Part shown: piece after piece, positions 1,567 to 8,057 of the stretch
Numbering within the stretch: the first letter of the stretch is position 1
Layout of the letters: each line of letters begins with the position of its first letter
Source of the DNA: a virus
Taxonomy: Duplodnaviria > Heunggongvirae > Uroviricota > Caudoviricetes
Length of the DNA: 13,867 nt
IMG/VR virus record: IMGVR_UViG_2713896778_000031
Strand: one strand, 5' to 3'
Notes under the pieces: generated by a model
The model's input: the letters and a program-made list of their open reading frames with translations, nothing else
Told to the model about the DNA's origin: nothing
Database searches by the model: none
Translations under genes and position numbers: made by a program

Positions 1567-2301
1567 ATGAACCTTGAAGCTTTACCAAAATATTACTCCC
1601 CAAAATCTCCAAAATTGAGTGATGACGCACCGGCGACAGGCTCGGGTGGTTTAACAATAACAGATGTGATGGCTGCGCAGGGGATGGTGCAGTCGAAAGC
1701 TCCGCTTGGTTTTGCCTTATTCCTGGCAAAAGTTGGTGTTCAGGATCCTCAGTTTGCGATTGAAGGTCTGCTCAATTANNNNNNNNNNNNNNNNNNNNNN
1801 NNNNNNNNNNNNNNNNNNNNNNNNNNNNACCTTGTGAATTTTGCCTTTGCTGATTATTCCAGGTCTGCGGCAAGTAAGGCTCGCTGTGAGTATTGTGCTG
1901 GTACTGGATTTCATAATGTATTGCGCGAAGTGGTGAAACACTCCAGAAGTGGGGAATCTGTTATCAAGGAAGAGTGGGTGAAGGAACTATGTCAGCATTG
2001 CCATGGTAAGGGAGAAGTCAGCACAGCGTGCAGAGGGTGTAAGGGGAAAGGTATTGTCCTGGATGAAAAAAGAACCCGGCTTCATAGCACGCCTGTTTAT
2101 AAGGTTTGTGGGCGTTGCAATGGAAACCGGTTTAGTCGTTTATCAACGACACTGGCGCGGTGTCATGTCCAGAAGCTGGTACCAGACCTGACGGATTATC
2201 AGTGGTACAAAGGATATGCAGATGTCATTGATAAACTGGTTACAAAGTGCTGGCAGGAAGAAGCATATGCTGAGGTGCAATTAAGAAAAGTGACGAGATA
2301 A
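1567..2301 (+). CDS. Late-gene antiterminator Q (phage 82/21-type, QuuQ-like), 244 aa with an internal N-run
   Basis: Position between the DUF968 gene and the lysis cassette; several CxxC pairs (CEYCAGTG, CQHCHGKG, CRGCKGKG, CGRCNG) consistent with a zinc-binding Q protein; size matches Qin QuuQ (about 250 aa). Frame is preserved across the N-run. Confidence 0.7.
   Translation: MNLEALPKYYSPKSPKLSDDAPATGSGGLTITDVMAAQGMVQSKAPLGFALFLAKVGVQDPQFAIEGLLNXXXXXXXXXXXXXXXXXXLVNFAFADYSRSAASKARCEYCAGTGFHNVLREVVKHSRSGESVIKEEWVKELCQHCHGKGEVSTACRGCKGKGIVLDEKRTRLHSTPVYKVCGRCNGNRFSRLSTTLARCHVQKLVPDLTDYQWYKGYADVIDKLVTKCWQEEAYAEVQLRKVTR
1779..1828. other. Run of 50 N (masked bases or assembly gap) inside the Q gene
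   Basis: Directly visible; the coding frame continues unchanged across it. Confidence 0.95.
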
Positions 2302-2440
2302 ATGATTTTCACCGAACGATGGCGACATAACGATTGTATTTTCTAAGGAAACGTGCAAAGAGTTTTCCAATGATGAGCCTTATATGCATACCTGTGGAAA
2401 ATATCAATAAGCCGCGCAGAGTGGTTTTTTTGTGGACATA
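2302..2440 (+). promoter_or_regulatory. Putative late-promoter/qut-like region immediately downstream of Q
   Basis: Lambdoid phages place the late promoter and Q-utilisation site directly after Q (established). A homologous copy of this segment recurs at about 3996-4131 ending in a clean terminator. The exact -35/-10 elements could not be assigned. Confidence 0.3.
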
Positions 2441-2551
2441 AACTTTGTGCAGAACGGTAACCATTATGGTTGCCGTGAATGCAGTTTTTTTACATTGCTG
2501 GCTTTTTTAGATTTGTGTTAGTTATTGATATTAACAAGAAGGGGAAAAGAC

Positions 2552-2653
2552 ATGCTAAAACGGCAGGATATGAAGGAAACGGTTATGCGTGAATGTTCCA
2601 GTGTGATTAACCATATCATCTGGAGAAGCCATCCTGATGCAGGGAAGAGGTAA
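2552..2653 (+). CDS. Small ORF (33 aa), candidate small protein
   Basis: ATG preceded by AAGGGGAAAAG; no recognisable motif; too short to support by composition. Confidence 0.2.
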   Translation: MLKRQDMKETVMRECSSVINHIIWRSHPDAGKR

Positions 2654-3062
2654 CAGTAACGCGCATCAATCAGGCTGCAAATAAATGGCTTACGCCGGAA
2701 ATCTGGCTATCGATGTATTACCGGTTTGTTACCCATGAAGAAAATTAAGGTGATAACGAAACTGATTTTATAGGTGTCTTGTCAGAGTGTTGCGATGAAA
2801 CTTGTGTTGGCAGTGCAGGGAAAACAGTAGGATGAAAATTATAAATTGCTTTAAATGAGCTTGATTTTCCTCATGTTATGAGATATTTGTCTTATATTGC
2901 TGGTTAATTATGAAAGTTTTTGTAAATCTACAGCAATAAAATCCATATTAATTAAAGCACTAGATGCGTTTCTGATTTGTGCATGAAACATACATATCAT
3001 AATGATTAATTGCATCTATAATTACAGATACAGCATTGTGCTGTTAAAAAACTGGAGTCCCC

Positions 3063-3170
3063 ATGAATACATTATATGTAAGTGATTCAAATGAAAAATC
3101 TCATGACAGGAATAAAAACAATGAGGATAGTAAGGGTAAGGATAATAAAAAAGACAACCGGAAAGAGTAA
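3063..3170 (+). CDS. Small ORF (35 aa) encoding a very hydrophilic K/N/D-rich peptide
   Basis: GGAG 5 nt upstream of the ATG; lies in an AT-rich segment; a strong + strand terminator follows at 3377-3405. Overlaps an antisense ORF, so coding status is uncertain. Confidence 0.25.
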   Translation: MNTLYVSDSNEKSHDRNKNNEDSKGKDNKKDNRKE

Positions 3171-3205
3171 ATAATCTTTCCTGCATAAAAATACTAGGGT
3201 GGAAT

Positions 3206-3325
3206 ATGTCAGAACATCCAGATTTTGATGACCGTAAGCCTGATGATGAGCCCGTTGAGCGTCCTGATGAGGGGCAACCATTGAACCCTTTTTCACCGGA
3301 TGATAAAAGAGATCCTATTATTTAG
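3206..3325 (+). CDS. Small ORF (39 aa) encoding an acidic, proline-rich peptide (MSEHPDFDDRKPDDEPVERPDEGQPLNPFSPDDKRDPII)
   Basis: GGGTGG upstream of the ATG; a + strand intrinsic terminator about 50 nt downstream; tandem with the previous small ORF. Confidence 0.3.
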   Translation: MSEHPDFDDRKPDDEPVERPDEGQPLNPFSPDDKRDPII

Positions 3326-3376
3326 ATATAGCAGAATATAGCCGTTTAAAGTAGGTTGTGTTTTGTTGCTATCCTT

Positions 3377-3405
3377 AAACCACCTCCACAGGAGGTGGTT
3401 TTTTA
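3377..3405 (+). terminator. Rho-independent terminator
   Basis: 11-bp perfect stem (AAACCACCTCC / GGAGGTGGTTT) with a 3-nt loop, followed by a T-run. Confidence 0.7.
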
Positions 3406-3461
3406 CTAATGGAACATTAATTGGCAGATGTGATTGTGTACGACTTATGGGAGGCTTAAGA

Positions 3462-3647
3462 TTATTTTCTGCCAATAATAAAACCAAGCGTTAACCCTAT
3501 GCTTAGAGCAACCACCACGCTAGTCAGTGGATAATTTCTAAATTTATCTTTAACGTTTTCTTTGCCTCCCTGCAAAGCATCGTCAGCACATGATGCATAT
3601 TTTTTGACAGTATTAACTATTTCGTTTTCAGATTGATTTGAAGTCAT
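3462..3647 (-). CDS. Small membrane-anchored protein (61 aa) with a DUF883 (ElaB/YqjD)-like C-terminal anchor
   Basis: ATG at 3647 with AGGAC 7 nt upstream; the longer 94-aa form in the ORF track starts at a TTG. The C-terminus NYPLTSVVVALSIGLTLGFIIGRK matches the pattern I recall for ElaB/YqjD tail anchors (hydrophobic helix ending in basic residues). Confidence 0.4.
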   Translation of the reverse strand: MTSNQSENEIVNTVKKYASCADDALQGGKENVKDKFRNYPLTSVVVALSIGLTLGFIIGRK

Positions 3648-3831
3648 GTTTGAAGTCCTGATGTTAAGTGGCTTTTTAATTATAGCAGATATGCTTTCAA
3701 TGATAGGGCGGAGAGTTGTTATTGAGGTGATACTATGACCACTCAATCAACATTACATAAAATGACGTTTACTCCTGTTTGGCACAGTAGCAGAATTTTG
3801 CTTCTGCTACTGAAGTCGCTTTAGCACTAGA

Positions 3832-3995
3832 ATATGCAGATGGATAAAGCAGTTCAGCGTATGTACTGCGTCATGCATATCGGTCTTGCAGATATGACGA
3901 GAAGGGGAGACAAGGTGTGTGTAATGTAGAAGTCTTTAAAGTGCTGTCTGGGATAACTCTATGCTGAAGTGCAATTGATAAAAGTAACACGATAA
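3832..3995 (+). pseudogene. Diverged remnant of a second Q-gene 3-prime end
   Basis: Nucleotide similarity to the end of the intact Q gene (ATATGCAGATG..., AAAGTGCTG..., ATGCTGAAGTGCAATTGATAAAAGTAACACGATAA versus ATGCTGAGGTGCAATTAAGAAAAGTGACGAGATAA). Translates to ...YAEVQLIKVTR-stop, matching the Q C-terminus YAEVQLRKVTR, but has an in-frame stop just upstream. Confidence 0.5.
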
Positions 3996-4101
3996 AGGTT
4001 TTTCAATGAAGATGGTAACGTGATGCTTGCATTTTTCAAAAAAATATGGATAAAGTTTTTTCAACGATGGGCTTTGTATACCCGACGTTAAGAAAAAGTA
4101 G

Positions 4102-4131
4102 AAAACCCGCTGATGAGCGGGTTTTGTGCTT
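4102..4131. terminator. Rho-independent terminator (tR-prime-like), possibly bidirectional
   Basis: 9-bp stem AAAACCCGC / GCGGGTTTT with loop TGATGA, followed by TTTTGTGCTTT; an A-run on the other side gives a T-run on the minus strand. Sits about 110 nt after the Q-remnant stop, where lambdoid tR-prime would be expected. Confidence 0.6.
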
Positions 4132-4417
4132 TAAATGGGGCAATGGTAATGTTGAATCTCATCCCGGGACTCATGTCTGTTAACTTATTATTTAGCTGGT
4201 GACTTGGTTATTTGCCTGATGTTTAAAATGTTTTCTTCCAGTACAATGTCCCTAAACACAATGAGTCTGCTTATTATATTATTAGCAGAGCTATTACGGC
4301 CAAAGTACAGCATAAGCTTTTAAAGCCAATCAACCAGTCATCAAGACAGACGGGGTTATTCATAAAAACTCTCCATGTGTGATCCGATGGGGCCTGAAAT
4401 TAAAGCTTTAATATAGC

Positions 4418-4630: not shown

Positions 4631-4884
4631 AAAAATTCCTTAACACTGATAACTTGGCGCACTATACACACGTTCCTGAAGAAAGCTATAGTGTTTTGAT
4701 GGGGTTGAAGATGGCTGGATGTCTAAAATAAACATTGCTTCATATGTTCAACTATGCGTTAATGATTGCGTCGGTTTGAAGAACAGACGATATACGAAGT
4801 AGTTTACTAAAGCAGTTCTCATTTCAGGTGTTATTCACTTATTCCTTCTTTGAGTCTCTCCAATTAAGTACGAAGTCGTTTCTG

Positions 4885-4930
4885 TTATGCAAACCATTTA
4901 TGCCGAAAGGCTCAAGTTAAGGAATGTAGA
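4885..4930 (+). promoter_or_regulatory. Conserved csp-type 5-prime UTR element upstream of cspB
   Basis: GCCGAAAGGCTCAAGTTAAGGAATGTAGA directly before the ATG closely resembles the conserved cspA-family leader/RBS region as I recall it. Confidence 0.5.
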
Positions 4931-5146
4931 ATGTCAAATAAAATGACTGGTTTAGTAAAATGGTTTAACGCTGATAAAGGTTTCGGCTTTATTTCTCCTG
5001 TTGATGGTAGTAAAGATGTGTTTGTGCATTTTTCTGCGATTCAGAATGATAATTATCGAACCTTATTTGAAGGTCAAAAGGTTACCTTCTCTATAGAGAG
5101 TGGTGCTAAAGGTCCTGCAGCAGTAAATGTCATCATTACTGATTAA
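4931..5146 (+). CDS. cspB: Cold shock protein CspB-type (71 aa)
   Basis: [21 protein letters not shown]...VFVHFSAIQ carries the RNP1/RNP2 motifs of CspA-family proteins; paired divergently with cspF and located beside the lysis cassette as in Qin. Confidence 0.8.
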
Positions 5147-5257
5147 AATTCATCGCTCGTCTGTATACGATAACGAAGAAGGCTGATGCCTGAGTAGAGA
5201 TACGGACAGAGTAGTGAATATTGGATCTCTTTAATAAAAAGTAAGGAGGTCCAATAC

Positions 5258-7455: not shown

Positions 7456-7816
7456 GGTAATATTAAATCGGAACATTTACATCGCGGAATGTAAAATTTA
7501 AATAAAAAGGACTCTTCCATGAGCCAAAATTCCTGAAATCTTAAGGGTAAGAAAAGGTCTTAATCAGAATGACACGTTTTATTAATAAATAAAGCTATTC
7601 TTTCATTGCTGTGTTTTTCTTTACAAAAGTAATCCTTGCTATGGGTGGTTAATCATGCGTTAATGGTGTTCTGGTTTGTTACAAATTTATCTGAAGCAGT
7701 CATTGTTATAATTTTATTATTTGTACCTCTTGGGATTTCCTTGTTGGTTTTTCTCTCTGATATTTTTTTTTCGGACCATTCTGCCCAAGGGCTAATTTCT
7801 TCAAAAGGTAATAATT

Positions 7817-8029
7817 ATGTCTAACAAAATGACTGGTTTAGTGAAATGGTTTAACCCTGAAAAAGGTTTTGGTTTCATCACGCCGAAAGATGGCAGCAAA
7901 GATGTGTTTGTCCATTTCTCAGCAATTCAGAGCAACGATTTCAAAACATTAACTGAGAATCAGGAAGTTGAATTTGGTATTGAGAACGGACCTAAAGGTC
8001 CTGCCGCTGTTCATGTAGTGGCGCTTTGA
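7817..8029 (+). CDS. cspI: Cold shock protein CspI-type (70 aa)
   Basis: [38 protein letters not shown]...; third CspA-family paralogue, located downstream of the lysis cassette as in Qin. Confidence 0.8.
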
Positions 8030-8057
8030 GGTAGACAATATTACAAACCATATTCAC

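Follow-up and report, generated by a model that had tools for sequence, protein, structure and literature searches.

Do two very short open reading frames (ORFs), which lie in tandem ahead of a strong terminator in an AT-rich part of a prophage, encode small proteins, or should they be explained in another way? The question is raised by the IMG/VR virus record IMGVR_UViG_2713896778_000031 (Caudoviricetes), a stretch of 13,867 nucleotides (nt); this whole stretch will be called the window, and all positions are counted from its first letter. The window is 100% identical to Escherichia coli O121 RM8352 over the stretches compared, and by its sequence it corresponds to the region from Q to the terminase in a Qin-like lambdoid prophage of this species. 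The reading which we put first, tentatively and a little short of an even chance, is that the ORF pair belongs to a compact, moron-like unit on the plus strand whose 3' end is formed by a strand-specific hairpin followed by a directional terminator. Within this unit ORF2 would be the credible coding sequence and ORF1 a doubtful one. The ORFs and their initiation sites are:

3054-3057, plus strand: Shine-Dalgarno (SD) sequence GGAG of ORF1, 5 nt upstream of the ATG
3063-3170, plus strand: ORF1, 35 amino acids (aa), MNTLYVSDSNEKSHDRNKNNEDSKGKDNKKDNRKE
3196-3203, plus strand: SD-like sequence of ORF2, AGGGUGGA, a partial match
3206-3325, plus strand: ORF2, 39 aa, MSEHPDFDDRKPDDEPVERPDEGQPLNPFSPDDKRDPII

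The original prediction had described two tandem ORFs of these lengths, each preceded by an SD sequence, and they are confirmed at the positions given here. The duplex with the 3' end of 16S rRNA has a predicted energy of -5.9 kcal/mol for ORF1 and -7.3 kcal/mol for ORF2, which places the two sites among the best 10% and the best 3%, respectively, of the 585 ATGs in the window. What chance alone would produce was estimated from 1500 dinucleotide shuffles of the 1.5-kb island, in which we counted, with thresholds set post hoc, the ATG ORFs of 35 aa or more that follow an SD sequence. The expectation is 0.36 such ORFs; two or more occur with P = 0.067, and a tandem pair on the same strand within 60 nt with P = 0.004. 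The layout of ORFs and terminator is thus real and goes beyond chance.

The peptide encoded by ORF1 is rich in Lys, Asn and Asp, with a grand average of hydropathy (GRAVY) of -2.5 and an isoelectric point (pI) of 8.1; that of ORF2 is acidic, with a net charge of -8, a pI of 4.1, 8 prolines and a GRAVY of -1.7. These compositions suggest binding partners rather than enzymes or proteins that insert into membranes. AlphaFold models made from the single sequences are coil for both, with predicted template modelling scores (pTM) of 0.16 for ORF1 and 0.13 for ORF2; the models are consistent with disorder and agree with the composition, but they are uninformative. The DFDD and NPF stretches in ORF2 may bear a likeness to the tail of the single-stranded DNA-binding protein (SSB) or to the NPF motif, and no claim is made on it. 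At the RNA level ORF1 is 71% purine and contains in-frame runs of A-R-N triplets (AGG AAU AAA AAC AAU; AAU AAA AAA) at 3094-3167 on the plus strand. Hfq binds A-R-N motifs through its distal face, and the segment could be a candidate Hfq-binding leader of ORF2 and not a coding sequence. A 7-bp hairpin (GGAAAGA...TCTTTCC, 3160-3181) lies across the ORF1 stop codon; it is terminator-like on the minus strand and weak, with three G-C pairs.

The 3' end of the unit consists of two hairpins:

3325-3343 / 3354-3373, plus strand: hairpin HP1, 19 bp with six G-U pairs, a 10-nt loop and one bulge
3377-3404, plus strand: intrinsic terminator with a perfect 11-bp stem (3377-3387 / 3391-3401), an ACA loop and T6 at 3399-3404

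The terminator had been predicted with an 11-bp stem on the strand of the ORFs, and this is what we find, with the U-tract on the plus strand only. It folds with -17.3 kcal/mol (z-score -5.5), and it escaped our automated terminator scan, since three of its Ts were counted in the stem. Because the same hairpin is followed on the minus strand by UUUAAGG only, without U6, the terminator is predicted to be efficient for plus-strand transcripts only. The single polymorphism found in it among 35 aligned copies, at the only variable position of the stem, is A to G at 3379, which turns an A-U pair into a G-U pair and thus keeps the pairing.

HP1 was missed in the original prediction. Its first base is the last one of the ORF2 stop codon, and on the plus strand it folds with -19.4 kcal/mol (z-score -6.1), a value matched by 0 of 200 shuffles, whereas the minus strand gives -4.3 kcal/mol (z-score -0.7). 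The G-U pairs turn into A-C mismatches on the other strand, and therefore the plus-strand RNA should be the relevant molecule. As far as folding predictions go, HP1 argues independently for a functional RNA end on the plus strand. HP1 and the terminator together (3318-3409) reach -36.7 kcal/mol (z-score -6.7). When 2300-4200 was scanned on both strands with a sliding folding window, HP1 came out among the top four structured elements, the other three being terminator regions. Across the 35 copies HP1 (3325-3373) has zero polymorphism.

The codon usage was scored as log-odds, with 112 long ORFs of the prophage loci collected as the training set and with a normalisation for the base composition of each ORF itself; 247 spurious out-of-frame ORFs of 30-70 aa served as controls. 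ORF2 scores +0.28 per codon, which is above all 247 of the controls and at the 86th percentile of chunks of real genes. Judged in this way ORF2 is the better small-protein candidate and the most gene-like element, and the coding status of ORF1 is doubtful. The suggestion that the two are undescribed small proteins stands only in part. Both are deposited as 'hypothetical protein' in GenBank records of E. coli and of phages, and independent gene finders call both of them (about 2170 collection blocks, always in identical context; about 2000 assemblies), whereas PGAP omits both. Of the database entries with an 'extended' ORF2, the one of 73 aa stems from a frameshift and the one of 46 aa from a change of ATA to ATG at 3187. 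That ORF2 is the C-terminal fragment of a larger gene was considered and rejected; it has neither an upstream in-frame start nor a homologue.

Neither peptide has relatives in the collections searched. Pfam, PHROGs, NCBIfam and PADLOC gave zero matches for ORF1 and ORF2, and the PDB gave no match for ORF2, the only one of the two searched there. A word-indexed search of 5.8 billion protein clusters, with the queries padded to 40 aa, returned only variants at least 97% identical to either peptide, and an exhaustive HMMER search of ORF2 against 1.84 billion representatives returned ORF2 itself alone. With tblastn against 50,697 phage records only the phages HannyBb and PhiR63_1 were found. Distant blastn against the genomes of E. 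coli, of phages and of plasmids gave no diverged copies; the search for them in IMG/VR was anchored on the neighbouring 61-aa protein, the product of a convergent gene which we call g61. Among the GTDB species genomes the protein search was empty, and a search for the terminator pattern gave one unrelated hairpin in Alkalimonas; the same pattern in metagenomes gave 11 loci, 5 of which have the island at more than 99.6% identity. A literature search on either peptide sequence found no paper. It should be noted that orphan status does not discriminate here, because the accepted gene g61 is equally orphan.

The 35 aligned copies of the island come from RefSeq, phages, IMG/VR, NCBI/ENA assemblies and metagenomes; the most divergent among them are 96-97.7% identical. 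Because all copies are at least 96% identical, the ratio of nonsynonymous to synonymous substitution rates (dN/dS) and the conservation of the frames are uninformative. In 3001-3410 the copies show no indels, and 35 of 35 keep both ORFs intact. The same 410 bp contain 5 segregating sites, compared to 25 in 701 bp upstream (Fisher p = 0.02) and to 38 in 1228 bp when both flanks are taken together (p = 0.05).

A unit of this kind has to be transcribed, and the candidate signals on the plus strand are the following:

3017-3022, plus strand: candidate -10 hexamer TATAAT, perfect but with a poor -35, read by eye and below the cut-off of the scan
3030-3044, plus strand: small 5' hairpin ACAGCA-UUG-UGCUGU in the fold of 3030-3412
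3103-3131, plus strand: promoter-like ATGACA-17-GATAGT inside ORF1, 9 of 12 positions, which would yield a monocistronic ORF2 mRNA
3292-3321, plus strand: promoter-like TTCACC-18-TATTAT just upstream of HP1

The reporting cut-off of the promoter scan was 9 of 12. The start predicted from the TATAAT at 3017-3022 is close to 3030, the first base of the small 5' hairpin. By analogy with lambda, antiterminated polymerase coming from upstream should also cross the island during lytic growth.

Several observations weigh against a moron-like unit. No convincing or strong promoter was found on the plus strand, and promoter-like sites are no commoner there than in shuffles. A diverged homologue of either peptide was not found in any of the searches, which gives purifying selection on the frames no support. 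The polymorphisms inside the ORFs are missense in 3 of 3 cases (S13T, S23G and D36E), as against 3 synonymous of 5 in g61. With a neutral synonymous fraction of 16-20%, finding 0 of 3 synonymous is expected about half of the time, and by our own estimate about 7% of the time under strong purifying selection; strong constraint on the amino acids is weakly disfavoured by these sequences and constraint at the nucleotide level weakly favoured, neither of them robustly. The codon score of ORF1 is -0.45, worse than that of 96% of the spurious ORFs. RefSeq, which is annotated by PGAP, has neither ORF, and a few assemblies carry frameshifted variants. Finally, the surrounding ren, rha and second Q sequences are decayed fragments, and the region as a whole may be degenerating.

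The moron-like unit would work as follows. The plus strand would be transcribed from a weak local promoter (3017-3022 or 3103-3131) or by antiterminated polymerase in lytic growth, and ORF2, less probably ORF1, would be translated into a short, highly charged and disordered peptide. The hairpin and the terminator would set the 3' end of the mRNA and stabilise it, and together they would halt unmodified polymerase before it collides with transcription of the convergent 61-aa gene. Going one step further, ORF2 (possibly together with ORF1) might be a true lineage-restricted small protein of the phage which binds a host or phage partner, or the double hairpin might be an undescribed prophage small RNA (sRNA); we regard this as unlikely. 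Roles for ORF2 along these lines would be, for example, those of an acidic mimic or of an anti-defence or stress modulator, and the cargo slot holds defence genes in related phages. Supporting context comes from the homologous region of K-12 Qin, which holds the validated small proteins YnfS and YnfU.

The main rival, quite possible although somewhat doubtful, is that the island codes for nothing at this place. The DNA would be left over from a nin region, the hairpin and terminator would be a tR2-like stop or insulator kept to shield g61, and the ORFs would have arisen by chance in purine-rich and AT-rich sequence. The unit does sit between a 3' fragment of ren and a 5' fragment of rha, followed by a remnant of the Q 3' end, and lambda carries tR2-tR4 at that ren-to-Q position of its nin region. 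The missing homologues, the absence of a synonymous bias, the lack of a clear promoter and the very poor codon score of ORF1 all fit a relic. So does the fact that short ORFs with an SD sequence are no rarity at this place; 1.5 kb contain five that are 29 aa or longer, of which one is disrupted in a sub-clade, and the coding density from Q to the holin is low in any case. A relic is harder to reconcile with the tandem SD-preceded pair, which is seen in 0.4% of the shuffles, with the clearly gene-like codon usage of ORF2, and with both ORFs being intact in every aligned copy at a diversity below that of the flanks.

Quite improbable, in our judgement, is the possibility that the RNA is itself the product and the ORFs are incidental. 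This regulatory RNA would be a species of about 80 nt comprising HP1 and the terminator, made from the promoter-like site at 3292-3321 or by processing, or else the A-R-N segment would act as an Hfq-binding leader. The double hairpin with its U6 tail is stable and strand-specific, a promoter-like sequence lies just upstream of it, 3325-3373 is without polymorphism and the change at 3379 preserves pairing; a Rho-independent terminator with U6 preceded by a hairpin, here HP1, is also what Hfq-type and 3'-end-derived sRNAs have. One study reports that Hfq of enterohaemorrhagic E. coli (EHEC) binds A-R-N repeats and that the prophages there encode many sRNAs (PMC4104026). A U-rich and hairpin module (47 nt, described below) recurs in an unrelated E. 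coli island. However, nothing credible was found in Rfam for 2400-4200, either at the gathering threshold or with E up to 10, the promoter-like site scores at background level, and the U-rich 3361-3368 is paired within HP1, which leaves no obvious single-stranded seed; covariation is unmeasurable, as the copies are nearly identical.

On the other strand lies the ORF from which the original prediction drew a likeness to type I toxin/antisense loci:

3087-3296, minus strand: antisense ORF, 69 aa from a GTG and 64 aa from an ATG at 3281, with a hydrophobic tail

The ORF with its tail is there as described, but a type I locus, with this product (3296 or 3281 to 3087) as the membrane toxin and the plus-strand transcript as the antisense antitoxin, is very improbable indeed. 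Its attraction is that the C-terminal 27 residues are hydrophobic and that the plus-strand transcript would overlap the ORF completely; a short hydrophobic ORF opposite a transcript with a strong terminator is likewise found in hok/sok, ldr/rdl, ibs/sib and tisB/istR, and hok-type loci occur elsewhere in prophages of this family (PF01848 upstream). Of what an antisense RNA of type I should have, the plus strand shows the terminator and the hairpin, and its promoter is uncertain. Type I loci have a usable toxin initiation region and a known toxin family, whereas here the GTG has no SD sequence (-3.6 kcal/mol), the internal ATG at 3281 is weak (-4.5 kcal/mol), and Pfam, NCBIfam, PHROGs and PADLOC gave no toxin family, the sole Pfam match being DUF6637 with E = 0.1. 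The codon score of -0.23 is below that of 83% of the spurious ORFs, and most type I toxins are shorter than 64-69 aa. Further, no promoter is evident on the minus strand, transcription of that strand must first pass the 11-bp hairpin, and HP1 does not fold there. The more modest explanation offered at the same time, that the tail is simply the complement of Lys and Asn codons, holds: it is the reverse complement of the AAA/AAT/GAT-type (AAN/GAN) codons of ORF1. We judge the antisense ORF to be a mirror-image artefact and not a toxin gene. Two other candidates were rejected, leader-peptide attenuation because no plus-strand gene follows the terminator, and retroregulation of the lambda sib type because the stem of 3358-3372 with 3403-3417, possible in read-through RNA, is far less stable than HP1 and terminator (-26.4 vs -36.7 kcal/mol).

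Compared to known systems, the locus is by sequence and layout closest to phage morons and to the small proteins of K-12 Qin, and it is homologous to none of them. Morons, a concept of Hendrix and Juhala, are cassettes of promoter, gene and terminator which have entered lambdoid phages between conserved genes. The likeness lies in the patchy presence in otherwise collinear prophages, in the distinct base composition, in the compactness, in the strong terminator of its own and in the use of a known accessory slot, since the equivalent slot upstream of rha in PhiR26_1 holds a PD-lambda-1 defence gene on the opposite strand. Unlike a moron, the unit has for a promoter only the lone TATAAT at 3017-3022 and sites of 9 of 12, which are no commoner than in shuffles; it carries two ORFs, of 35 and 39 aa, without homologues, and it stands within a decayed and duplicated remnant of an early region and not between two intact genes.

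The late region of K-12 Qin contains the validated small proteins YnfS (29 aa), YnfU (56 aa), YnfQ and YnfR (10.1101/511675, PMC6001520). They share with ORF1 and ORF2 the prophage family, the interval from Q to lysis, the very short length, the restriction to a lineage and the fact that standard annotation missed them. There is no sequence relationship, however; in contrast to YnfS, which is hydrophobic, and to YnfU, a zinc-binding protein, the peptides of ORF1 and ORF2 carry a high charge and are predicted to lack structure. In the Pfam scan ORF1 and ORF2 matched neither PF23697 nor PF23499, the YnfS and YnfU families (0 families in all), and both of these models match neighbouring genes. 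The lambda nin region, with tR2-tR4 and its small nin ORFs, resembles the locus in having a terminator on the early-right strand between homologues of ren and Q with small ORFs around it. It differs in that here the copies of ren, rha and Q on either side are no more than fragments and the unit is downstream of an intact Q, not upstream of it; its genes have no sequence similarity to the ORF1/ORF2 unit.

Where did the island come from? That it is AT-rich and horizontally acquired, as had been proposed, is essentially right, and its origin can now be given more specifically. The GC content is 0.28-0.40 in 2700-3750 and 0.47-0.57 in the flanking and upstream phage genes. Of 5426 complete E. coli genomes, 40 carry the 900 bp around the ORF pair, each with an identity of 99% or more; two phage records have this DNA as well, those of Escherichia phages HannyBb and PhiR63_1, and the context is constant everywhere. 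K-12 Qin and strain 631 are relatives without the island, and there Q runs straight into sequence equivalent to position 3938 of the window (the pR'2/ynfS/cspF region). The insert is 1.6 kb and is placed between two copies of the Q 3' end, which form a direct repeat of 73 nt with 77% identity (2244-2316 vs 3938-4010) that covers the last 58 nt of Q plus sequence beyond. Copy 2 runs on into a pR'/tR' of K-12 Qin type (to 4135), with TTGCAT-17-TAAAGT and a terminator at 4095-4132. The fragments in question are:

2702-2821, plus strand: ren fragment from the 3' part of the gene, 73-75% identical to sequences annotated as 'protein ren'; left-hand marker of the decayed nin-type segment
3723-3917, plus strand: 5' part of a rha gene, 79% identity to the start of the PhiR26_1 Rha gene
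3938-4010, plus strand: second Q 3'-end remnant, the repeat of 2244-2316, followed by the K-12-type pR'/tR'

Since ren and rha fragments lie inside it and the duplicated Q end flanks it, the insert is on present sequence comparisons a decayed ren ... rha ... Q segment, of the early-right, nin type, from a second lambdoid phage. The ORF1/ORF2 unit and the convergent 61-aa gene would then fill the nin-type accessory slot of this segment, and the place of the unit is, by the same comparisons, downstream of the Q gene and ahead of the late promoter of K-12 type.

Some further observations were made in this part of the window. The Q 3' end together with the pR'/tR' module is doubled, which places candidate late promoters at about 2334-2362 (copy 1) and about 4028-4056 (copy 2), and the -10 hexamer of copy 1, AAAGAG (2357-2362), looks degenerate. 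Just past the first tR'-like terminator (2409-2427) there is a structured element on the plus strand, 2436-2500, with a z-score of about -5, which includes the hairpin ACGGTAACC-ATTAT-GGTTGCCGT. A 33-aa ORF at 2552-2653 on the plus strand has a strong SD sequence (-7.9 kcal/mol), and its segment is 77% similar to sequences of mEp460, cdtI and Stx2c phages. The frame is cut short by a premature stop (2622 G to T) in a sub-clade from IMG/VR, where 3 of the 4 copies also have a 32-bp deletion just downstream, 2673-2704; the ORF is therefore probably not a conserved gene. Inside the rha fragment is a truncated 29-aa ORF with a strong SD sequence, 3735-3824. Below the Rfam threshold, isrK matches 4061-4127 on the plus strand (16.6 bits, E = 1.1), over the short transcript from pR'2 to tR'2, which may mirror the general shape of short RNAs from lambdoid late promoters. 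The stretch 3361-3407, 47 nt comprising the U-rich sequence and the terminator hairpin, is found again, with 91.5% identity, in 15 further E. coli genomes, for example at 3001-3047 of L006 (ECOR29). There it follows an N6-DNA-methylase gene and has nucleotidyltransferase, ThiF and MPN genes as neighbours; the stretch looks like a terminator module shared with an unrelated island.

The convergent neighbour and its candidate promoter are:

3462-3647, minus strand: g61, a tail-anchored protein of 61 aa, the sole gene annotated by RefSeq in the island
3679-3687, minus strand: extended -10 promoter TGcTATAAT of g61, a candidate read from the sequence

The g61 protein matches phrog_11629 from end to end (E = 5e-47) and weakly DUF883_C, the DUF883 C-terminal glycine zipper. 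Of the five polymorphisms in the gene, 3 are synonymous and 2 missense, and no homologues below about 97% identity were found for the protein. The gene converges on the terminator at 3377-3404, which is also 58 nt beyond its own stop codon. From its sequence g61 looks like a real orphan gene, and it is probably expressed in the lysogen.

Over the whole window the gene order is ydfU, ydfT (antiterminator Q, 1549-2301), cspF, cspB, ynfU, essQ, ydfR, rrrQ, rzpQ, cspI, ynfQ, ynfR, ynfN, gnsB and terminase. No tRNAs were found in it. At the gathering threshold Rfam gives two cspA-type thermoregulator leaders and nothing else; they are of full length (RF01766, 159 and 112 bits) and lie on the plus strand at 4770-5193 and 7670-8056, upstream of cspB and cspI.

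If ORF2, or both ORFs, are translated, the orphan hydrophilic peptides would join the growing list of small proteins encoded by prophages; the validated small proteins of E. coli are mostly hydrophobic. The prophage that carries them occurs in lineages of pathogens, O121 and O103 strains among them. If the ORFs are non-coding, they call for caution, in that callers of the Prodigal and PHANOTATE type annotate them in thousands of assemblies without evolutionary support. For phage genomicists the wider context may hold more interest than the ORFs themselves, the duplicated Q-end/pR' module around a decayed ren ... rha ... Q segment being a record of how recombination assembled the late-region leader in Qin-like phages.

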